From: Gaiellaceae bacterium
GTDB taxonomy: Bacteria; Actinomycetota; Thermoleophilia; Gaiellales; Gaiellaceae
Assembly: GCA_035534955.1 (NCBI GenBank)
Contig: DATLQV010000032.1
Location: forward strand, 1,988 to 65,987
Reading direction: 5' to 3'
DNA length: 64,000 bases
A program made the position numbers and the translations under genes. The notes under the pieces were generated by a model. That model was given only the letters and a program-made list of their open reading frames with translations. It had not been told where the DNA came from and made no database searches. Positions 7,588-16,077 of the stretch are shown here, piece by piece. The stretch's first letter is position 1, and the number at the start of each line of letters is the position of its first letter.

Positions 7588-8019
7588 ATGCTCGGACGCG
7601 ACTACGAAGGCCAAGACTGCTCGGTGGCGCGCACGCTGGAGCTCGTCGGGGAGCGCTGGACGCTGCTCGTCGTGCGGGACGCGTTCCTCGGCCGGCGACG
7701 ATTCGAGGAGTTCCAGGAAAGCCTCGGGATCGCGCGCAACGTCCTCGCCGACCGGCTGGCGAAGCTCGTCGAGCACGGCATCTTCGAACGCGTCCGCTAC
7801 CAGGAGCGCCCCGAGCGCTACGAGTACCGGCTGACGCCGAAGGGCCGCGACCTCCGGCTCGCGCTGGCCGCACTGATGCAATGGGGCGACCAGTACGTCT
7901 CGCCCACGCCGCCGCGACTCCTCCGCCGCAAGTCCGACGGAACACCGGTCCGCGTCGCCCTTATCGACGCCGACGGAACGCCGATCGAGCCCACAGAAAT
8001 CGAAAACGTCGCCGCCTAA
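7588..8019 (+). CDS. HxlR-family (winged-helix, MarR-like) transcriptional regulator
   Basis: 'CSVARTLELVGERWTLLVVRDAFLGRRRFEEFQESLGIARNVLADRLAKLVEHGIFER' is the HxlR signature. Start trimmed from the spurious 6475 ORF. Confidence 0.9.
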   Translation: MLGRDYEGQDCSVARTLELVGERWTLLVVRDAFLGRRRFEEFQESLGIARNVLADRLAKLVEHGIFERVRYQERPERYEYRLTPKGRDLRLALAALMQWGDQYVSPTPPRLLRRKSDGTPVRVALIDADGTPIEPTEIENVAA

Positions 8020-8440
8020 ACGTGCTCGAGGAGCGCAGACCGGATCGCCTCCTCGAAGCTTGTGCGTTGGACTCCGACGATGTCCCAGAGTCGATCGTCG
8101 TGTGCGACGGTCGGGACGCGCAGTCCCTCGACGAGGGGTCGCGCCACCGCGACGCTCGCAGGTGTGACGAGGTGCAGCCACAGCGACGAAAGCCGCGGCG
8201 TCAACAACGGGACCTCGATCAGGAACGGATGCTTGCCACGGACACGTGCGACTCGTTCCATCATCGTCCGGTAGGTCATCACCTCGAGGCCACCGACATC
8301 GAAGGTCTGGTCGTAGGCGAGGCGTTGCCACACACGCCGACGAGGACGGCGAGCACGTCGGCCATCGCAACCGGCTGCGTCTCGACCGACACCCACCGCG
8401 GGAGGATGGTCGACGCCACCATCGATAGAAGCGTCCGATG
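8016..8440 (-). pseudogene. C-terminal remnant of an NAD(P)H-binding (atypical SDR / DUF2867-type) oxidoreductase, frameshifted and lacking the Rossmann half
   Basis: Two frames carry consecutive pieces: 'LPRWVSVETQPVAMADVLAVLVG' (frame of 8279..8671) then 'FDVGGLEVMTYRTMMERVARVRGKHPFLIEVPLLTPRLSSLWLHLVTP'. The N-terminal half is replaced by the end of the FRD gene. Confidence 0.55.
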
Positions 8441-8448
8441 TCCCAGCC

Positions 8449-9015
8449 TTACACGGGCGCAGAGGCGGGCACAGCGGCACGCGGGAACGTCCGTGGGGCG
8501 AGCAGCCTGTAGAACGTGAGCCAGAGCACAGGCCCTGCTGCGAGCAGTGCGACCACGGGGCCGCCGAGCCCTTTTAGGTCGGTGCCGACGAAGAGCGCAT
8601 GGCCGAGTGACAGCGCAAATCCGGCGAAGGCCGCATAGTGGAGGCGACGCCAGCCTTTCTGACCGATCCACTTCCGGAGATAGAACGACGCGGCAATCGC
8701 GAGGCTCAGCCAGCCGCCGACGACGCCGGCCGCGACCGCGCCGGGCTTGTAGGGGGACGCGAACGGGACGATCGCCGTCAGTGCGGAGAAGTGCATGACG
8801 GGGTCGAGCATGAGCGCGACCACATGCAGGCCGACCGCCGCGAGCCCTGTCCAGACGAGGGTGCGGTGCAGGCCGAGCAGCGGCTTCATTCGCTTAGACC
8901 CGAGCAGCCGCGTGCTCATCGCGAGGCCGAGCCAGACTGAAAGCGTCAGCAGGCCGAACGCGACGAGTCCGGCGGCGCGGGCGATGAGCCACGCGATAGG
9001 GAGCGTCGTCGCCAT
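8449..9015 (-). CDS. Ferric-reductase-like transmembrane domain protein (bis-heme, MsrQ/NOX-type), stand-alone 188 aa (FRD-a)
   Basis: 6 predicted TMs. 'HRTLVWTGLAAVGLH' (H-x13-H) and 'HYAAFAGFALSLGH' (H-x12-H). ATG overlaps the ApbE stop (TGATG). Confidence 0.85.
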   Translation of the reverse strand: MATTLPIAWLIARAAGLVAFGLLTLSVWLGLAMSTRLLGSKRMKPLLGLHRTLVWTGLAAVGLHVVALMLDPVMHFSALTAIVPFASPYKPGAVAAGVVGGWLSLAIAASFYLRKWIGQKGWRRLHYAAFAGFALSLGHALFVGTDLKGLGGPVVALLAAGPVLWLTFYRLLAPRTFPRAAVPASAPV

Positions 9016-9968
9016 CACGCGGCCCGAAGGAGCATGCGGCGTGCGAGCGGGAGCGGGCCGAGCTCGACTGGCTCGCCGTCGACCGGGAGGTACAGCGCAG
9101 CGATGCTTGGGTGCAGCGCCACGTGCGCTGCGGCGTCCTCGGGCGTAGAGATTGCGAGCGCGGTCGCGTGCGCCTCGGCATCGGTCGCGGTCGGCGCGAC
9201 GACGGTGACCGCGAGCGGGCCGGGTTGCGCTGGCGCGCCGGTAGCCGGATCGATCAGATGGTGAAGGGACGCGTCGGGGCCGAAGCGGCGCACGTCGCGG
9301 CCCGAGGTGGCGACTCCGCCGCTCCGCAGGGCGAGGATGCCCGCAGTCGTTCCGGGGTGGCGGGCGTCTGCGATGGCGATTCGCCACGGCCCGCGCTCGG
9401 GCGTCTCTCCGGCGAGGGCGATGTCTCCGCCGAGATCGACGAGCCCGCCGGGCAGTCCGGGCCAAGCGTCCGCCATCGCCTCGAGCGCGCGCGTCGCCGC
9501 GTAGCCCTTGCCGATGCCGCCGAGATCGACCGCAGCCCCGGACTCGATTCGCACGCGGCCGGCCCCCGCGTCGACGTTGATCTCGGCGCCTGCACGCCAG
9601 CCATTGGCGCGTCGAGGAACCCGCACCGCGAGCTGTTCGAACGAGCGGTCGTAACCGGCGGCGATGAGCGCGGGTAGGACGGTCGGGTCGAAGCGGCCCC
9701 CGGTCGTCTCCCGCGCTCGGACGGCCAGGCGCAGCACCTCTACGAGGCGGCGATCGACCGGCAACCATTCTCCGCCGGCGGCGTTCAAGCGGGAGAGGTC
9801 GCTGGTTACGTCGAAGCGAGAGAGTGCCGACTCGCAGGCGGCGACTTCGGCCCGCGCCGCCGCCAGCGCACGCTTTGCCCGCCCGGAATCGCCCGGAGCA
9901 GAGGTGACCGCGGCGGCGCAAGTGGTGCCGACCGCATGGAACTCGACGCGTTCGAGCCGGCGGATCAC
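9015..9968 (-). CDS. apbE: FAD:protein FMN transferase (ApbE family), no signal peptide or lipobox (ApbE-a)
   Basis: 'SRFDVTSDLSRLN', 'GGRFDPTV', 'LGGIGKGYA', 'VDLGGDI', 'VATSG...HHLIDPATG'. GTG start at 9968 overlaps the upstream stop (GTGA). Confidence 0.9.
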   Translation of the reverse strand: MIRRLERVEFHAVGTTCAAAVTSAPGDSGRAKRALAAARAEVAACESALSRFDVTSDLSRLNAAGGEWLPVDRRLVEVLRLAVRARETTGGRFDPTVLPALIAAGYDRSFEQLAVRVPRRANGWRAGAEINVDAGAGRVRIESGAAVDLGGIGKGYAATRALEAMADAWPGLPGGLVDLGGDIALAGETPERGPWRIAIADARHPGTTAGILALRSGGVATSGRDVRRFGPDASLHHLIDPATGAPAQPGPLAVTVVAPTATDAEAHATALAISTPEDAAAHVALHPSIAALYLPVDGEPVELGPLPLARRMLLRAA

Positions 9969-10189
9969 GGCTTCACGACTCCGGACGTGGAAGTCGTCGC
10001 GTGCGTCGCGCCGATTGCGCCGGGCTGGACGACGACGAACTGCTGCTTCCCGTTGGGCCCCTTGACCACGAGCGTCTGCGCGGCGGGCGCCGGCGCTGCC
10101 GTGGAGACGGGCCGGTACGACCAGGCCAGAACGGTCACGATGGCCAGCATCGCCCAGACGGAGAGCACGACTGCCCAGACGCGTTGCAT
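9965..10189 (-). CDS. Small single-pass membrane protein (74 aa, 'sp2a')
   Basis: N-terminal TM 'VWAVVLSVWAMLAIVTVLAW'. Translationally coupled on both sides. Paralogue of 12906..13190. C-terminal 'PGAIGATHATT'. Confidence 0.6.
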   Translation of the reverse strand: MQRVWAVVLSVWAMLAIVTVLAWSYRPVSTAAPAPAAQTLVVKGPNGKQQFVVVQPGAIGATHATTSTSGVVKP

Positions 10190-10365
10190 CAGTCCCCCCC
10201 CTCCCAGGTCTGCGTGGGCGCCGGCGGCTGCTGCGCTTGCACAACTGCTGCAGGCGCCGGCTGCGCGACAGCCGCCGTGTGGCTTATGCCGAGGATCGCC
10301 GCGCCGCCCGTGAGGACAGTGGCGGCAAGCACGCCTGCGAGTGTGAGAGCGGTTCGCTTGTTCAT
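10189..10365 (-). CDS. Small signal-anchor or secreted peptide (58 aa, 'sp1a'); below the ORF-track size cut-off
   Basis: Hand translation: MNKRTALTLAGVLAATVLTGGAAILGISHTAAVAQPAPAAVVQAQQPPAPTQTWEGGD. GGAG RBS 6 nt upstream, and the TGA overlaps the next ATG. Same position as 12578..12913 in the paralogous operon. Confidence 0.5.
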   Translation of the reverse strand: MNKRTALTLAGVLAATVLTGGAAILGISHTAAVAQPAPAAVVQAQQPPAPTQTWEGGD

Positions 10366-10432
10366 CGTGGCTCCTTCACTTGGGGAACGCTCTCGTTTTA
10401 TGGCGACGCCGGCAAATGCGGGGCGAAGGTAT

Positions 10433-10452
10433 GGCGAGGGTTCGGTAAAGAC
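10433..10452 (-). promoter_or_regulatory. 20-nt box GTCTTTACCGAACCCTCGCC (minus strand), shared with 12491..12510; candidate response-regulator operator or internal promoter
   Basis: 18/20 identical to the box upstream of the paralogous operon. The first base is 87 nt from the first start codon in both cases. Confidence 0.45.
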
Positions 10453-10455
10453 AGA

Positions 10456-11799
10456 TCAGGCTCGCCGGAGGCGGACCACGGCGTCGAGGCCGCCGCCCGG
10501 CGCGTCGGCCAGCTCGACCGAGCCTCCATCCGCCTCGACGAGCCTGCGGACGATGGCGAGACCGAGCCCGGAGCCGCCGGCCCCAGAGCCCGCGCGCCAG
10601 AACCGGTCGAACGCACGCGTGCGCTGCTCGGCTGTGAGACCAGGCCCTTGGTCGCCGACGTGGATCTCGACCGCGTCCGCTTCCGACCGAACCGCGATGG
10701 TGACGGCGCTCCCCGCCGGCGCGACGGCGAGCGCGTTCGCGACGAGGTTGTCCAGAACCTGCACGAGGTGGTCCCGCGCCGCGCGCACCATCACGTCCCC
10801 TGCGGTCCGCGCGAGGATGCGAACGCCGCGTTCCTCGGCGAACGGCGCCCAGTGAGCGACGCGCTCGCGCACGACGGCGCTGGCATCGAGCGTTGCGATC
10901 GGGGCCGTGCCCGCGTCGGCGCGCGCAAGCGCGAGCAGCCCCTCGACAAGATCAGAGAGCCGCTCCGCCTCGCGCAGCCCCGCCTCGACGTCACCGTTCT
11001 CGAGCCGGAGCCGGAGGGCCGTGAGCGGGGTCCGGAGCTCGTGAGACGCATCGGCAACAAAGTCTTCCTGCGAACGGACGAGTTGGCCGAGCTTCGTGAC
11101 CGTCTCGTTGAAGACGGCCGCGAGAGACCGCACCTCGGGCGGGCCGGCATGCTCGGATGCGCGTGCGCCGAGATCGCCCTCGCCTACCGTTGCCGCCGTC
11201 CGTTCGAGGTCGCGCAGCGGACGGGTAACAAAGCGCGCGGTGAGCAGACCGAGAGCAACCGCGGCAGCGAGGACGACCAGGCCAACGGCACCGAGGATGA
11301 GCCAGTAGTGCATGATCCGGGAGTCGACGGCCGACGTCGGATACGTCACGCGCACGGCGCCATGCACGACTCCTCCGGATGCGATCGGCACTGCGACGTA
11401 CAGCAGCGTGGTGTGCAGCGTCGCCGATCGCCGCGTACCGGATGCGACATTCCCACGCAGCGCTGATCGGATCTCGGGGCGCGTGGCGAAGCTCTCGCGC
11501 CCCGTATGGCTTGCGCTCGTGTCGACGACTGCGTCGCCCTGCTTGTCGACGATCACCACCCTTGCGCCGCTGCTACCGGTGTACGCGTACGCCTTCTGCG
11601 CGATACCGCGTAGCTGCGGCTCGGAGAGCGTCTGCACGGCGTCCTCCGAGAACGACGCGAGCGTGGTCGCGTCGTGCTCGAGCCGAACGGTCAAGTCGTG
11701 CCGCTCGTTGCGCTGGTTCTGAATGCCGAGCGGAACCTCGAGCGCGAGGAGCACGAACAGCGTGATGCCCAGATACCCGAGGAGAAGGCGGCGGATCAC
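10456..11799 (-). CDS. Sensor histidine kinase (2 TM, ~150-aa extracytoplasmic domain, HAMP, HisKA, HATPase_c)
   Basis: H-box 'ASHELRTPLTAL', N/G boxes 'VLDNLVANAL', 'DQGPGL', 'GSGLGLAIV'. GTG start at 11799 overlaps the RR stop (GTGA). Confidence 0.9.
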   Translation of the reverse strand: MIRRLLLGYLGITLFVLLALEVPLGIQNQRNERHDLTVRLEHDATTLASFSEDAVQTLSEPQLRGIAQKAYAYTGSSGARVVIVDKQGDAVVDTSASHTGRESFATRPEIRSALRGNVASGTRRSATLHTTLLYVAVPIASGGVVHGAVRVTYPTSAVDSRIMHYWLILGAVGLVVLAAAVALGLLTARFVTRPLRDLERTAATVGEGDLGARASEHAGPPEVRSLAAVFNETVTKLGQLVRSQEDFVADASHELRTPLTALRLRLENGDVEAGLREAERLSDLVEGLLALARADAGTAPIATLDASAVVRERVAHWAPFAEERGVRILARTAGDVMVRAARDHLVQVLDNLVANALAVAPAGSAVTIAVRSEADAVEIHVGDQGPGLTAEQRTRAFDRFWRAGSGAGGSGLGLAIVRRLVEADGGSVELADAPGGGLDAVVRLRRA

Positions 11800-12452
11800 G
11801 CGTCGCGCAGGCGGAAACCGACGCCGCGCACGCTCTCGATCCAGCCGGGATCTCCCAGCTTGCGACGCAGGGCGGCGACGTGGACGTCGATCATCTTCGC
11901 CGATCCGTACCACGTCGTCTCCCAAACCTCCTCGAGCAGCCGCCGCCGGCTAACCGCAGCGCCCGGATCTCGTGCGAGCGCGGCGAGCAGCTCGAACTCC
12001 TTCGGAGTCAGCTTGAGATCGCGCCCGTCGAGCTCGGCGCGGCGGGATCGCTCGTCGACCTCGAGCGTTCCGACCCGCAGCGGCTCGTGCGCATGTGGAC
12101 GGTCTTGCGTTCGCCGTGTAACGGCCCGGATACGAGCGATCAGCTCGCGGAGGCCAAAAGGCTTGACCACATAGTCGTCGGCTCCAAGCTCGAGGCCGAC
12201 GACGCGGTCGCTCTCCTCGCCGCGTGCGGTCACGACGATGATCGGTACCGCCGAGGTCGAGCGAAGCTGGCGGCAGACGTCGAGCCCGTCCCCGTCGGGC
12301 AGGCGCAGGTCAAGAAGGACGACGTCCGTTGGCCCGGCGGCGAGCGCGCCTGCGGCGGTGCCGACCCGCTCAACGTCGAATCCCTCGCGCCGCAACCCTT
12401 CGGTCAGCGGCTCGGCGATCGCATCTTCGTCCTCGACGAGCAGGATCTTCAC
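11796..12452 (-). CDS. OmpR/PhoB-family response regulator
   Basis: 'MKILLVEDEDAI', 'VVLLDLRLPDGDG', winged-helix C-terminus 'LTPKEFELLAALA...RGVGFRL'. Confidence 0.95.
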   Translation of the reverse strand: MKILLVEDEDAIAEPLTEGLRREGFDVERVGTAAGALAAGPTDVVLLDLRLPDGDGLDVCRQLRSTSAVPIIVVTARGEESDRVVGLELGADDYVVKPFGLRELIARIRAVTRRTQDRPHAHEPLRVGTLEVDERSRRAELDGRDLKLTPKEFELLAALARDPGAAVSRRRLLEEVWETTWYGSAKMIDVHVAALRRKLGDPGWIESVRGVGFRLRDA

Positions 12453-12490
12453 GGCCTCAGTGTCGGATCGCCGGCGAGTCTGCGCATCCG

Positions 12491-12528
12491 GTCTTTACCG
12501 AATCCTTGCCGAGGAGTGCCCGAATCCT
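12491..12528 (+). promoter_or_regulatory. Box GTCTTTACCGAATCCTTGCC plus a second CCGAATCCT direct repeat 22 nt downstream, in the divergent RR/operon intergenic region
   Basis: CCGAATCCT occurs at 12498..12506 and 12520..12528, about two helical turns apart. The first copy is embedded in the 20-nt box shared with 10433..10452. Confidence 0.45.
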
Positions 12529-12577
12529 GGTTAGACGCGTGCCCGGCGCTAACTGCGTGCTCCCTACCGTCGGGGTC

Positions 12578-12913
12578 ATGTCCAGATCACACATCGCTCT
12601 TATCTCGGGACTGCTCGCGCTCGCCGCAGTTGTCGGCACCGTTGCGGCGACGCGGACCGTCTCCCTCAGCTCCACGAGCCGGCAATCCGTGGACGCGATC
12701 GTGGCCGCGCGTACGAAGCAGCTCGACCGCCTGCAGGCCGCCCTGCAGCGCGCGCTCGCCAAGCGCCCGCCCGCCCGCGTCGCGGCCGCAGCCGCACCGA
12801 CCCCACGGGTCGTCTACCGCCGGCCGCCCTCGATCCTCGTCGTCAAGCACGTGCATCACGGCGACGACGGTGCATTCGAGAACGCCGACGGCGGAGGCGG
12901 CGGGGATGGCTAA
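12578..12913 (+). CDS. Small signal-anchor protein (111 aa, 'sp1b') with acidic Gly-rich C-terminus
   Basis: TM 'IALISGLLALAAVVGTVAA'. C-terminus 'HVHHGDDGAFENADGGGGGDG'. Overlaps the next gene by 8 nt. Confidence 0.55.
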   Translation: MSRSHIALISGLLALAAVVGTVAATRTVSLSSTSRQSVDAIVAARTKQLDRLQAALQRALAKRPPARVAAAAAPTPRVVYRRPPSILVVKHVHHGDDGAFENADGGGGGDG

Positions 12914-13190
12914 CCACACCGTCCGCCTGTACGCGCTCGCGCTTGGCCTCGTCGTGTTCTTCCTGGCGTGGGCCGTGGTTGCAGCCAGGCCGTGGACGAC
13001 AAGGGCGGCCGACCCGCGTCTGCGCGCGCTCGCCGTACGCGCGGCGCTGCTTCGCAAGGAAGCGAAGCTCGTGAATCAGATCGTCGCCGCACGGCAGCGC
13101 GCAGCCTCCGCAGCCACTGCCCCCGCCGCAGCGTCGAGCGCCGTCAGAGTCGTCACGCTCCCGCCACTGACGATCACGAGGACGTCGTGA
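12906..13190 (+). CDS. Small single-pass membrane protein (94 aa, 'sp2b')
   Basis: TM 'LYALALGLVVFFLAWAVVAARPW' resembles sp2a 'VLAWSYRP'. Its stop overlaps the ApbE GTG (GTGA). Confidence 0.55.
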   Translation: MANHTVRLYALALGLVVFFLAWAVVAARPWTTRAADPRLRALAVRAALLRKEAKLVNQIVAARQRAASAATAPAAASSAVRVVTLPPLTITRTS

Positions 13191-14023
13191 TCGAGCGGCG
13201 CGGCTTTCGCGCGATGGGCACCGACATCGAGCTCATCGTCGAGGCCGGCGACGCCGGGCCTCAGCTAACGGCCGCCGAGCAGGAGTTCGACCGGCTCGAG
13301 GCGCTCTTATCGCGCTTCCGGGACGACTCGGAGCTCTCACGCCTCAACCGCGACGGCTCGATCGACGCGGGGCCGGATCTGCAACGGCTCGTCGCGCTCG
13401 CGCTCGAGGCGCGCGAGCGTACCGGCGGCCGATTCGATCCCACCGTCCACGACGCCCTCGTCGGAGCCGGCTACGACCGCTCCTTCGAAGACGTCCCCGG
13501 CGACTCGGCGGAGCCGCCGCGGGCCGCGCGCTGCGGCGGCGACGTCCGCATCGACGGAGGCCGCATCGTGCTCGGCGACGGCGTCCACCTCGATCTCGGA
13601 GGCATCGGCAAGGGCTACGCGGCCGAACGCGCGGCCGAGCTGCTCGGAATCGCAGGGCCGTGTCTCGTCAACGCGGGCGGCGACATCGCAACGCGAGGCG
13701 GTGCATGGCCGGTCGGCGTCGAGACCGCCGACGGGACGATGACGCTCGAACTGCACGCCGGCGGGCTCGCCACGTCCGGACGCGACCGCCGCCGGTGGCG
13801 CAAGAACGGCCGGGAGCAGCACCACATCATCGATCCCTCCACTGGCGAGCCCGCCGAGACCGATCTGCTTCGTGTCACCGTCATCGCCCGAGACGCCGTC
13901 GAGGCCGAGGTCGAGGCGAAGGTCATCTTCCTCTCCGGGTCGCGCGCCGCTGCACATACGGAGCTCTCGACGATCCTCGTCACCGACGACGGACGCACGC
14001 TGCTCACGGGAGCGCTCGCATGA
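13187..14023 (+). CDS. apbE: FAD:protein FMN transferase (ApbE family), no signal peptide (ApbE-b)
   Basis: 'FRAMGTDIELIV', 'SRFRDDSELSRLN', 'GGRFDPTV', 'LGGIGKGYA', 'NAGGDI', 'LATSG...HHIIDPSTG'. Confidence 0.9.
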   Translation: MIERRGFRAMGTDIELIVEAGDAGPQLTAAEQEFDRLEALLSRFRDDSELSRLNRDGSIDAGPDLQRLVALALEARERTGGRFDPTVHDALVGAGYDRSFEDVPGDSAEPPRAARCGGDVRIDGGRIVLGDGVHLDLGGIGKGYAAERAAELLGIAGPCLVNAGGDIATRGGAWPVGVETADGTMTLELHAGGLATSGRDRRRWRKNGREQHHIIDPSTGEPAETDLLRVTVIARDAVEAEVEAKVIFLSGSRAAAHTELSTILVTDDGRTLLTGALA

Positions 14024-14577
14024 CCCACGACCCAACCTTCTGGCTTCTCGCGCGCGCGAGCGGTCTCACGGCCTATGTGCTCATCACCGCCTCCGTGCTC
14101 GCCGGGCTCGTGGTCAAGTCGCGCCCCTTCGGCCGCGCGGTCAAGGCGGCGGACTCCGTCGATGCCCATCGAACCCTCGCACTGCTCGGTCTCGGGATGC
14201 TCGCCTTGCACGGCGTCGCGCTCACACTCGACAGCACACTGCATATGCCGACTGCGGGGCTTGCCGTGCCGGGGCTGTCGCCCTATCGGCCGGCGTCGGT
14301 CGCCCTCGGCGTCGTCGCGTGCGAGCTCGCCGCACTGCTCGTCGTCTCCTTCCCACTGCGCCGCCGGATCGGGATGCGCGCTTGGCGCAGGATCCATTGG
14401 GCCTCCTACCTCATCTTCGCCATGGCTACCGCTCACGGCATCGCCGCCGGCACCGACTCGACACAGCCGTGGGCACGCGGCCTCTACCTCGGAGCGGTGG
14501 GCGCCGTCGCGTTCGCAACCGCATGGCGTGCGCTCATCCGCCCCACCCACACCCCGGCCCCCGAAAGGAGCACGTGA
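14020..14577 (+). CDS. Ferric-reductase-like transmembrane domain protein, stand-alone 185 aa (FRD-b)
   Basis: 'HRTLALLGLGMLALH' (H-x13-H), 'HWASYLIFAMATAH' (H-x12-H), 6 TMs. ATGA overlap with ApbE-b. Confidence 0.85.
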   Translation: MTHDPTFWLLARASGLTAYVLITASVLAGLVVKSRPFGRAVKAADSVDAHRTLALLGLGMLALHGVALTLDSTLHMPTAGLAVPGLSPYRPASVALGVVACELAALLVVSFPLRRRIGMRAWRRIHWASYLIFAMATAHGIAAGTDSTQPWARGLYLGAVGAVAFATAWRALIRPTHTPAPERST

Positions 14578-14774
14578 TGTACAAGATCGTGATCGACCGT
14601 TCGCTCTGCAGCGGCTTCGGCTCCTGCGCTGAGCTCGCTCCAGAGATCTTCGAAGTCGACGCGGGCGGTCTCGCCTCCCTGCGCGTCGGCACCACCGGCG
14701 ATCCGGCCGTCCTCGAGGCGGCGAGCGCCTGCCCGATGGCGGCCATCACCGTCGTCGAGGAGGAGGCAGCATGA
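14577..14774 (+). CDS. Small ferredoxin (actinobacterial 3Fe-4S/4Fe-4S type, 65 aa)
   Basis: 'IVIDRSLCSGFGSCAELAPEIFEVD...ACPMAAI' is the classic Cys pattern. AAAGGAG RBS. The start shares its A with the FRD-b stop. Confidence 0.85.
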   Translation: MYKIVIDRSLCSGFGSCAELAPEIFEVDAGGLASLRVGTTGDPAVLEAASACPMAAITVVEEEAA

Positions 14775-15865
14775 CTCCGCGCACGGTCGTGATCGTGGGC
14801 GCCGGCCTCGCCGGCGCCCGTGCGGCCGAGGCGTTGCGCGCCGAGGGTTTCGACGGGCGCGTGGTGCTCGTTGGCGAGGAGCCGTTCGGCCCGTACGAGC
14901 GTCCCGCCCTCTCGAAGGAATTCCTCGCCGGCACGCGTGATGAGACCTCGTTGCAACTGCGCAAGCCCGGCTTCTGGAACGAGCGCGAGATCGAGCTCGT
15001 GCTCGGCACCCGCGTCGACTCCGTCGATCCGGTGTCGCGCGTAGCCAGGACGAGCCGTGGGTGGGAGCTCCCTTTCGACGCGATCGTCCTTGCCACGGGC
15101 GCTCGCCCCCGGCGTCTTCCGCTCGATCTTCCGGCGGGCGTGCATGAGCTGCGCACACTCACGGATGCACAAGCGCTCCGGGACGAGCTCGTGCCGGGAC
15201 GCCACCTGGTGGTCATCGGCGGAGGCTTCGTCGGTGCGGAGGTCGCCTCAACGGCGTCCTCCCTCGGCATGCATGTGGCTATCGTCGAAGCTGCGCCGGC
15301 GCCCGTCTCGCGCGTCCTTGGAGAAAAGGTTGGGCTCATGCTCGCAAGCCGCTGGCGCGCGCGAGGCATCGACGTCAGGCTTCGCACCGGCGTCGAGCAC
15401 ATCAGAGCGGACGTCTCCGGACGCGTCGACGCAGTCGCGCTCACCGACGGCACGACCCTCCGAGCCGATGCCGTGCTTGTCGGGGTCGGCGTCGAGCCGC
15501 GGCGCGAGCTCATGCCGAAACGTCCTTCGGCCGACGTCCATCCCGCCGGCGACGTCGTCGGACCCGGGCACTGGAACGCCGCCGCACTCGACGGAACCGC
15601 GGCCGCTCGCCGGATCCTCGGCCTCGAGGTTCCTCCGGCGCAGCCACACTACGTCTGGTCGGACCAGTTCGGCCTCCGCCTGCAGGTGGTAGGAACCCCG
15701 CGACCCGACGACCCGTTCGAGCTGAACGGCGACGACGACTCCTTTGCCGTCCGCTACTTCGATGAGCTCGGGCGCACTCGAGCGGCGCTGCTTGCGAATC
15801 GTCCTGCCGAAGCCGCGGCGATCAGGCGCACGCTGCAGGAGAGCGCGTTACCGTTCGCGGCATGA
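14771..15865 (+). CDS. NAD(P)H-dependent ferredoxin reductase (FAD pyridine nucleotide-disulfide oxidoreductase, putidaredoxin-reductase type)
   Basis: 'VVIVGAGLAGARAAEALR', 'YERPALSK', 'LVVIGGGFVGAEVAS', 'HPAGDV'. Confidence 0.9.
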   Translation: MTPRTVVIVGAGLAGARAAEALRAEGFDGRVVLVGEEPFGPYERPALSKEFLAGTRDETSLQLRKPGFWNEREIELVLGTRVDSVDPVSRVARTSRGWELPFDAIVLATGARPRRLPLDLPAGVHELRTLTDAQALRDELVPGRHLVVIGGGFVGAEVASTASSLGMHVAIVEAAPAPVSRVLGEKVGLMLASRWRARGIDVRLRTGVEHIRADVSGRVDAVALTDGTTLRADAVLVGVGVEPRRELMPKRPSADVHPAGDVVGPGHWNAAALDGTAAARRILGLEVPPAQPHYVWSDQFGLRLQVVGTPRPDDPFELNGDDDSFAVRYFDELGRTRAALLANRPAEAAAIRRTLQESALPFAA

Positions 15866-16077
15866 CACGACGCCTCTCCACAGTCGTCCTCGGGGCGCTT
15901 CTGCTCGCCGCCGCCGCCGGAGCGATCGTCGTGCTAAACGTCCTCCTGCTCGGTCGTGCCTCCGCGACGAACGACCCCGTCGGCCATCTCAGCGCACGAA
16001 CGCACCTGCCGGCGGCTCCAGCATGGACAGTGCGACCCACGCACGGAGAGGTGGAGAACGACGGCACCGACGACTAG
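15862..16077 (+). CDS. Small signal-anchor protein (71 aa, 'sp3') with acidic C-terminus
   Basis: TM 'VVLGALLLAAAAGAIVVLNVLLL'. C-terminus 'WTVRPTHGEVENDGTDD' resembles the sp1a and sp1b tails. ATGA overlap with the reductase gene. Confidence 0.5.
   Translation: MTRRLSTVVLGALLLAAAAGAIVVLNVLLLGRASATNDPVGHLSARTHLPAAPAWTVRPTHGEVENDGTDD

Follow-up and report, generated by a model that had tools for sequence, protein, structure and literature searches.

The 64,000-nucleotide stretch of DNA analysed here (the window; GC content of about 70%) belongs to contig DATLQV010000032.1 of the Gaiellaceae bacterium assembly GCA_035534955.1. Between positions 8449 and 16077 it holds a cassette of 13 genes in which two paralogous strings, each encoding two small transmembrane (TM) proteins, an ApbE protein and a five-helix bis-heme ferric-reductase-domain (FRD) protein, flank one OmpR-type two-component system. 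The cassette is tentatively read below as a trans-membrane electron conduit whose small proteins may carry flavin mononucleotide (FMN). Gene models were set from the open reading frames (ORFs) and the context of their start codons. The minus strand encodes the OmpR-family response regulator (RR; 11796-12452; Pfam Response_reg and Trans_reg_C) and the histidine kinase (HK; 10456-11799), in which a TM segment, an extracytoplasmic sCache-like region of about 150 amino acids (aa), HAMP, HisKA and HATPase were assigned with Pfam. These are followed on the same strand by the module p58-p74-ApbE1-FRD1: p58 (10189-10365), a single-pass small protein with the acidic C-terminus ...WEGGD; p74 (9965-10189), a single-pass small protein with a near-C-terminal H-A-T-T-x-T-S; ApbE1 (9015-9968), of the FAD:protein FMN transferase family (FAD, flavin adenine dinucleotide); and FRD1 (8449-9015), a protein of 188 aa recognised by its identity to FRD2 and its four His. 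The plus strand encodes p111 (12578-12913), the positional counterpart of p58, which consists of a single-pass helical segment, a Pro/Ala linker, the string VVYRRPPxxVVKHxHHGDDG and a Gly-rich acidic end; p94 (12906-13190), the paralogue of p74, with a TM helix, a basic helix and a disordered tail ending LPPLTITRTS; ApbE2 (13187-14023), of the same transferase family; and the 185-aa FRD2 (14020-14577; Pfam Ferric_reduct, AlphaFold2 model). In addition, this string encodes a 65-aa ferredoxin (Fd; 14577-14774), by its motif of the 3Fe-4S type, an FAD-dependent ferredoxin-NAD(P)+ reductase of the putidaredoxin-reductase type (FdR; 14771-15865) and the single-pass 71-aa protein p71 (15862-16077), with NDPVGxLxPR...LPAAPxWTVRP and a C-terminus ...[AS]DD.

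The arrangement of two paralogous strings around one RR/HK pair, pointed out in a preliminary description of this DNA, was confirmed by the 42% identity of the paralogues and by its recurrence in many species. The same description had every junction within the strings overlapping. This holds for overlaps of 1, 4 or 8 nt at all junctions except HK to p58 (the GTG start of HK at 11799, for instance, overlaps the RR stop by 4 nt), where a 90-nt spacer (10366-10455) containing a conserved box separates the two genes.

The two FRD proteins end after their fifth TM helix and have no fused FAD/NADPH dehydrogenase domain. FRD2 scores 30.9 bits against Pfam Ferric_reduct (PF01794; cut-off 28). FRD1 lies below every Pfam threshold and is 42% identical to FRD2 with all four His kept; a precomputed PF01794 match is present on many orthologues of both types. 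The H-x13-H and H-x12-H heme-ligand pairs noted earlier in both proteins were borne out by an alignment of 63 sequences of both paralogue types, in which H50/H64 and H126/H139 are invariant, likewise R51, D71, W122-R123, G144 and D146, with T145 nearly so. The AlphaFold2 model of FRD2 has five TM helices (pLDDT 86.5), and its best PDB matches in Foldseek were SpNOX, DUOX1, STEAP1 and NOX5, with probabilities of 0.97-1.00, TM-scores of 0.53-0.58 on the query and weak E-values of 0.03-0.3. Applying the positive-inside rule by eye, loops 34-46 and 114-124 and the C-terminus are predicted to be cytoplasmic, and residues 71-91 and 144-152, including D71 and the G-T-D loop, to face outwards. The G-T-D loop was considered as a flavinylation site and rejected, as it is predicted to lie on the outer face by the outer-heme His and to pair with the invariant Asp71; on the sequences and the model, loop and Asp71 may instead form a substrate or cation site. 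The NCBIfam MsrQ model (NF003831) gives 14 bits against a cut-off of 130, and the position of the flavin-binding Arg77 of MsrQ, an Arg shared by STEAP, is occupied by the heme-ligand His50 followed by Arg51, as in NOX; for both reasons the FRDs are not MsrQ proteins, a possibility that the preliminary description had named as part of what would refute its proposal. Its phrase 'split NOX' fits the logic and the gene linkage of the system but not its family membership, since the FAD/NADPH dehydrogenase domain is missing.

Both ApbE proteins are well above the Pfam cut-off (PF02424; ApbE1 187.6 bits, ApbE2 180.4 bits, cut-off 25.6) and are 42% identical to each other. ApbE2 matches ApbE/Ftp structures in the PDB with E-values from 5.5e-23 to 9.1e-12 (1vrm, 5.5e-23; 3pnd, 2.8e-19) and is alignable over its whole length to FAD:protein FMN transferases of solved structure, the HH-I-I-D-P segment aligning with the homologue TM1553 (1vrm). 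In both enzymes no more than 10 residues separate the start codon from the mature-domain motif, and no hydrophobic stretch was found in the in-frame upstream extensions of 58 of 58 ApbE2 and 36 of 37 ApbE1 orthologues, the one extension that is hydrophobic being probably a frameshift. The earlier observation that these ApbEs have neither signal peptide nor lipobox therefore extends to 94 of 95 orthologues. Cytosolic ApbEs are known; tags of seven residues suffice for flavinylation, with terminal placement working best (PMC12052999). The residue of ApbE2 that aligns with the metal-ligand Asp283 of Escherichia coli Ftp is Glu (at about 233-250) and the next Thr is Lys; by eye, the Asp283-to-Glu change is also apparent in ApbE1 and in the distant ApbE of locus L085, and it may alter metal or substrate handling. 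Some ApbE/Ftp members are FAD pyrophosphatases or FAD binders, not transferases (PMC4767422). With Pfam, which matched both ApbEs, FRD2, Fd and FdR, no FMN_bind, DUF2271 or DUF3570 domain was found among the operon proteins, and the canonical flavinylation motif D-x-x-[ST]-G-A-[ST] is absent from all 13 of them. The only canonical-looking D-x-x-S-G-S-T in a long ORF of the 64 kb is a DVRSGST at about 45950 (+); by eye, it lies within the GD-type flavoprotein motif 'FAAGDVRSGSTK' and is most likely a chance occurrence, not an ApbE target.

The putative electron donors are recognisable by family. Fd matches Pfam Fer4_15 (46 bits) and Fer4_13; it has three Cys in the arrangement C-x2-F-x2-C...CP, and C-x2-[FYH]-x2-C...CP occurs in 56 of 79 sequences (the window and 78 orthologues), which points to a 3Fe-4S cluster. 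FdR scores 182.6 bits against Pyr_redox_2 and 42 bits against Reductase_C, and its best NCBIfam matches are ferredoxin reductases of the HcaD/AndAa type, below their cut-offs. Because the linkage of these genes to FRD is conserved and no P450 signature occurs in the window, a cytoplasmic feed from NAD(P)H through FdR and Fd to heme is reasonable.

The five small proteins (p58, p74, p94, p111 and p71) belong to no Pfam or NCBIfam family. The gene directly upstream of each ApbE encodes one of them, a single-pass protein whose stop overlaps the ApbE start (GTG for ApbE2). At 13176-13190 the window reads ACG-AGG-ACG-TCG-TGA, where an Arg codon that is rare in a genome of about 70% GC evidently serves as Shine-Dalgarno sequence for the overlapping ApbE2 start. 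The p94 family comprises 1260 proteins at E <= 0.01 and 323 representatives at 50% identity, and those with names are all hypothetical proteins. Its members share an invariant N-terminal region, a variable Ala/Ser/Gly-rich linker and the extreme C-terminus ...LPP[LV]-T-x-T-R-T-S. A C-terminal [ST]-x-[ST]-S is kept in the family, wider members ending in TRSS, TKTS, THSS, SGTS or SGSS, the last of which matches the canonical [ST]-G-[AS]-[ST] in a subset. AlphaFold2 places helices at residues 3-33 and 37-70 of p94 and leaves the tail disordered (pLDDT about 50). In p74, H-A-T-T-x-T-S stands four to six residues from the end and is found in 33 of 36 orthologues. Through synonymous codon changes, p94 keeps T(-1) in 70 of 71 sequences and S(0) in all 71, and synonymous codon variation occurs at every position of the p74 motif, so the Thr and Ser of the tail are under selection at the protein level. 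A pure nucleotide constraint was rejected as the cause of this conservation: it is true for Arg(-2) but fails for T(-1), S(0) and the p74 motif. At position -6, where the canonical motif has its Asp, His is present in 33 of 33 matched p74 proteins. In p94, His(-6) is found in 18 of the 22 loci that retain only ApbE1 and in none of the 51 with ApbE2, a pattern that looks like a substrate tracking its enzyme but may come from a single clade. Taken together, the p94 and p74 T-x-T-S tails are the best candidates for a non-canonical flavin tag, to be modified by ApbE2 and ApbE1 respectively; by sequence, they provide a concrete candidate for the flavinylated component other than FMN_bind to which, as had been argued, the ApbEs point.

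Apparent fusions of p94 to its neighbours were dismissed. The p94-FRD fusions P0055 and P0080 and the p94-ApbE fusions P0370, P0383, P0479, P0492 and P0506, all from metagenome-derived databases, are artefacts of frameshifted calls in error-prone assemblies: their joining segments are out-of-frame translations of the p94 tail, and ApbE matches only in pieces. The other small proteins have acidic C-termini: p71 ends ...[AS]DD (DD in 58 of 59), p58 ends in D (...GGD) in 31 of 35 including the window copy, and p111 ends in D in 66 of 78, often as GGGGDD after KHxHHGDDG. A role of these ends in metal binding, or in signalling for sorting or contacts, is a guess. Export of p71 by the twin-arginine (Tat) route was rejected, the 'TRR' of the window copy not being kept in orthologues.

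The side of the membrane on which the tails lie was approached through the distribution of charge. In p94, Lys plus Arg amount to 4.7 in the 25 residues after the TM segment versus 1.05 before it, and the C-terminal domain is 15.7% Lys plus Arg and 3.9% Asp plus Glu; the C-terminal domain of p74 has no acidic residue at all. This distribution points to a cytoplasmic tail in p94 and p74, in the compartment of ApbE, Fd and FdR. For p58, the charge bias indicates that the N-terminus is inside and the C-terminus outside.

Conservation of the cassette was studied in a scan of one genome per GTDB species, which returned 373 relatives, the best 80 of them all metagenome-assembled genomes (MAGs) of Gaiellales/Thermoleophilia. 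The best 80 loci were annotated by tblastn with the window proteins, and components were counted in the 66 loci with enough flanking sequence. p94 and at least one ApbE are present in 66/66 of these complete loci, p111 in 63/66, Fd, adjoining FRD, in 62/66, RR plus HK and p71 in 52/66 each, ApbE2 in 45/66, FdR in 34/66, the second module (p58-p74-ApbE1-FRD1) in 30/66 and p58 in 29/66 (34 orthologues counting all loci). Gene order is variable, mirror-arranged in some loci and colinear in others; the Fd-FdR pair is located after FRD1, not FRD2, in three loci, and FdR is translationally coupled every time it is present. Four annotated neighbourhoods contain the same genes in differing chromosomal settings, with the full mirror duplication in two. 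At E <= 0.001 the databases hold 2505 relatives of FRD2 and 973 of FRD1, many close ones coming from soil metagenomes, and FRD1 is identical to the Gaiellaceae MAG protein P0121. The 21 complete loci without ApbE2 retain ApbE1 together with two FRD modules, from which it follows that one ApbE can serve two modules, as a maturation enzyme would.

Distant relatives of p94 stand in the order small protein, p94-like protein, ApbE and FRD, and their vicinity holds neither Fd nor FdR nor a two-component system; Fd and FdR are likewise lacking in the distant relatives L085 and L086. It follows that the ancestral unit is the four-gene core (small protein-small protein-ApbE-FRD), to which Fd/FdR, p71 and the regulator are additions. 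The core, with its two tiny single-pass proteins, signal-less ApbE and five-helix FRD with four His, is kept in every relative examined, and in the Gaiellaceae a ferredoxin of the 3Fe-4S type nearly always goes with it, joined in half of the species by a coupled ferredoxin reductase. The seven-gene plus string, whose co-occurrence had been proposed as a check, is not conserved as a whole: half of the loci have no FdR, and the conserved unit is the four-gene core.

A third, divergent ApbE-FRD lineage, 31-39% identical, occurs in some of the same loci near the cassette (L035:13143-16054; also L058, L050, L014, L042 and L064), and there too the stop of a tail-protein gene overlaps the start of a signal-less ApbE. 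The small single-pass proteins of this lineage end in PPPIVTSTS, TTSSS or VSGGS and have a 20-residue N-terminal tail with seven Lys/Arg before their one TM segment. The third-module FRD has an extra TM segment and an outside domain of about 130 aa ending ...LGASSS, and the module also encodes a Kelch-repeat protein with a lipoprotein-like signal, probably a lipoprotein.

Candidate regulatory sites also occur in the DNA of the cassette. The 19-mer TCTTTACCGAAYCCTYGCC occurs exactly twice in the 64 kb, at 12492-12510 (+) and 10433-10451 (-), with 0.01 occurrences expected by chance, and both copies lie upstream of a module in the orientation of that module. The copy on the plus strand is part of a direct-repeat box, TTACCGAATCCTTGCC ... 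CCCGAATCCTGG (12492-12533, +), with repeats about 22 nt apart, in the divergent intergenic region between RR and p111, and it is a candidate RR operator. The other is the conserved box TCTTTACCGAACCCTCGCC (10433-10451, -) in the HK-p58 spacer, a candidate RR operator or promoter element of the second module. Across 55 loci the direct-repeat consensus is TTtGCCGAAcCTTTaCC ... GAAcCcT.GC, about 22 nt apart, at a fixed distance of about 105 nt upstream of p111, and related boxes are found 66 or about 108 nt upstream of p58 in other loci. By its sequence, the direct-repeat pair resembles what would be expected of an OmpR-family operator and is a candidate for one. No NCBIfam equivalog reaches its cut-off for RR or HK. 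A known regulon could not be assigned to the two-component system, the best HK match being the heavy-metal sensor subfamily, at 179 versus 293 bits and over the cytoplasmic part only.

The closest catalogued relatives in logic are the MsrQ-like flavinylation clusters of Actinobacteria (Meheust et al., 2021, eLife, PMC8238504; Huang et al., 2024, mSystems, PMC11334425). Those clusters, like the cassette, place a PF01794 cytochrome beside apbE, are mainly actinobacterial and have been proposed to transfer electrons from a cytosolic donor across the membrane. They typically include FMN_bind (PF04205), and in 1437 of 1797 clusters the cytochrome has a fused NAD-binding domain, whereas the cassette has no FMN_bind, fused dehydrogenase or signal peptide and instead contains small tail proteins, separate Fd and FdR and a dedicated two-component system. 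In PMC8238504 a cluster was defined by PF01794 within five genes of apbE, and in the cassette the two genes are adjacent and overlapping; the definition also called for ApbE, FMN_bind, DUF2271 or DUF3570 to bear a signal peptide or lipidation site, and no such protein occurs in the cassette. That study retained a cluster only when ApbE or an FMN_bind-type protein bore one of these, and by design it would have left out the class represented by the cassette; no Gaiellales cluster was found in the available part of its supplement text. In its logic the cassette can be grouped with the catalogued 'MsrQ-like + ApbE' systems, but it falls outside their operational definition. Literature searches for its architecture found nothing specific, in agreement with the earlier statement that it is not recognisable as a characterised system. 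What is added here is the conserved T-x-T-S tail as candidate ApbE target, the paradox of a signal-less ApbE and the shared direct-repeat box.

Other known systems resemble parts of the cassette. The NOX proteins, including SpNOX (PDB 8qta, 8qq7) and NOX5, share with the FRDs the H-x13-H/H-x12-H pairs and the inner-site His-Arg, are their best structural matches and follow the same logic, from NAD(P)H through flavin or iron-sulfur centres and two hemes to the outside; the FRDs differ in having five TM helices instead of six, no dehydrogenase domain, a separate ferredoxin donor and the outer-face invariant residues D71 and D146. E. coli MsrQ (YedZ) with Fre (PMC12525009) is also a stand-alone FRD with a separate cytosolic reductase and a flavin at the cytoplasmic face, but it contains one heme plus a non-covalent FMN bound by Arg77/Arg78, where the cassette proteins have a heme-ligand His at the Arg77 position. 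In Klebsiella pneumoniae and in engineered flavin-tags (PMC12052999), a signal-less cytosolic ApbE acts and a short unstructured terminal peptide suffices. The Klebsiella target is a soluble FMN_bind fumarate reductase with the canonical D-x-x-[ST]-G-A-[ST] motif, whereas the candidate here is a tail that occurs naturally at the C-terminus of a single-pass membrane protein and departs from that motif. The flavin-based extracellular electron transfer (EET) system of Listeria (PplA/FmnB/EetAB/Ndh2) is likewise Gram-positive, with an ApbE-type enzyme that makes a membrane-tethered flavoprotein and an outward electron flow; it differs in its quinone-dependent EetA/B in place of FRD, in FMN_bind on a lipoprotein, in its extracytosolic FmnB and in its dedicated FAD exporter.

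The reading that we tentatively prefer, as possible though short of probable, is that the cassette encodes a lineage-specific trans-membrane electron conduit of the Gaiellales, present twice in the window under one two-component system and equipped with a cytoplasmic FMN leash on the tail of a small protein. NAD(P)H would reduce FdR and FdR would reduce Fd, which would dock on the Arg-rich cytoplasmic face of FRD; electrons would then pass from the inner to the outer heme and on to an extracytoplasmic acceptor, which would be bound close to the invariant Asp71 and Gly-Thr-Asp144-146 of the outer face and is probably O2 or a metal cation. ApbE would be a cytoplasmic maturation enzyme, not a subunit, and would attach FMN to the T-x-T-S of the small protein encoded directly upstream (p94 for ApbE2, p74 for ApbE1). 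The resulting flexible flavin leash would take the place of the FMN_bind domain of canonical MsrQ-like systems, and its cytoplasmic FMN would stand between the soluble donors and the inner heme, like the FAD of the NOX dehydrogenase or the FMN of MsrQ. RR would bind the direct-repeat boxes that precede the two modules and the RR gene itself. The donor chain had been proposed before; its Fd-FRD step is consistent with the conserved linkage of these two genes, while the FdR step lacks a gene in half of the loci.

Several observations weigh against the preferred reading. The conduit is proposed here on genes, sequence comparison and predicted structures. Fd, as a one-electron carrier, could reduce heme directly, so that there is no obvious need for a flavin on the cytoplasmic side; half of the loci have no FdR, and the cassette encodes no extracytoplasmic redox partner. 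The tail itself departs from the canonical motif in having neither Gly-Ala nor Asp. Its Arg(-2) is encoded by AGG or AGA in 65 of 67 cases, so this residue reflects the Shine-Dalgarno sequence that the following gene requires and not a demand of the protein. The co-variation of His(-6) with the enzyme is probably that of one clade, and a second set of loci that lost ApbE2 (L044, L057, L072 and L084) kept Leu or Val at -6. Finally, the tail proteins of the third module have the N-terminus inside and the C-terminus outside, which argues for an exported tail.

Export of the tail is the nearest alternative. In this version of the same conduit, ApbE flavinylates the tail in the cytoplasm, post-translational insertion translocates it and its FMN relays electrons from the outer heme to external acceptors; we consider this doubtful. 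In its favour, the flavinylated partner lies outside the cytosol in every catalogued membrane cytochrome system associated with ApbE (PMC8238504; PMC11334425), and in canonical MsrQ-like and EET systems the same outer role falls to FMN_bind proteins. The C-out tail proteins of the third module, with their strongly basic N-terminal tails, are served by an equally signal-less ApbE, and that module has outward parts in its probable Kelch lipoprotein and its enlarged FRD. The tails sit on Pro/Ala/Ser/Gly-rich linkers, an exported tail would supply the missing outer acceptor, and FAD export, for which Listeria has a dedicated transporter (PMC9973259), would not be needed. Set against this are the strong positive-inside signal for a cytoplasmic C-terminal domain in p94, the lack of acidic residues in that of p74 and the chance that the third-module small proteins are not homologues of p94 and p74. 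To our knowledge, no export of an FMN-modified peptide has been described so far, which counts against the idea as well. The fuller form of this proposal, in which cytoplasmic ApbE tags a minimal T-x-T-S before insertion and the exported FMN tail completes a ferredoxin-driven, NOX-like conduit built of separate small parts, is in our judgement rather unlikely. Two versions of the mechanism are accordingly kept, one with the FMN inside, before the inner heme, and one with the FMN exported on the tail and accepting from the outer heme; ApbE is cytoplasmic in both.

More distant from the preferred conduit with a cytoplasmic leash is the unlikely case that ApbE modifies no cassette protein at all. 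Its target would then lie elsewhere (an FMN_bind, Nqr/Rnf-like or fumarate-reductase-like protein), or it would be an FAD-binding or FAD-hydrolysing flavin trafficker for FRD, and the tails would serve O-glycosylation, phosphorylation or protein contacts. The absence of a canonical motif from the operon fits this, as does the similarity of Thr/Ser beside Pro-rich stretches to actinobacterial O-glycosylation sites. So do the FAD pyrophosphatases and binders among ApbE/Ftp members and the Glu at the position of Asp283 (PMC4767422), and the use of non-covalent FMN by MsrQ (PMC12525009). It has to contend with the translational coupling of ApbE to tail protein and FRD in three divergent paralogous lineages and every species examined, with the presence of ApbE twice in one locus, and with the His of FRD at the MsrQ Arg77 position, by which the inner site is heme and not flavin. 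Very improbable, and largely refuted, is the view that the FRDs are ordinary MsrQ/YedZ proteins for an MsrP elsewhere and that Fd and FdR are unrelated neighbours, for instance P450 partners. Many homologues do bear the name 'sulfoxide reductase heme-binding subunit YedZ' in their source annotation from the Joint Genome Institute (JGI), and Fer4_15 ferredoxins with such reductases commonly serve actinobacterial P450s. The low MsrQ score and the four His in place of an Arg77/His pattern contradict it, and the Pfam tables of the four annotated neighbourhoods, a scope narrower than the whole genome, list no MsrP-like gene or molybdoenzyme. Nor does it agree with the lack of a P450 signature in the window or with the coupling of Fd to FRD, which moves with the cassette when gene order changes.

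The surroundings of the cassette differ from those in its relatives. In the window it is flanked by an HxlR regulator and an MFS transporter on one side and by ArsR, a YgaP-like TM protein and an MMPL transporter on the other. At 8016-8480 (-) there is a 154-aa ORF without Pfam match, which shares about 30 nt with the 3' end of FRD1; its product resembles the C-terminal portion of some larger protein, perhaps left behind when the cassette was inserted. In two relatives (L001:15746-19272 and L003:17332-19754), ribD, ribE, ribBA and ribH lie 5-9 kb from a cassette adjoining recG and fakA/degV. This proximity to riboflavin genes was not found in the window and may be a coincidence.

The Gaiellales are among the most abundant uncultured actinobacteria of soil. 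With thousands of homologues of the cassette genes in soil metagenomes, a regulated and often duplicated conduit of this kind represents an uncharacterised physiology, for which metal reduction or uptake, superoxide production and extracellular electron transfer are possible roles. The cassette also offers a natural test of whether ApbE can act on a degenerate terminal tag of a membrane peptide and whether flavinylation can precede export. If true, an exported leash would add a new class to the substrates of ApbE and open a way to extracytosolic flavoproteins without FAD export. By the proposed donor chain, cytochromes of the NOX type would be drivable by ferredoxin in place of a fused dehydrogenase.

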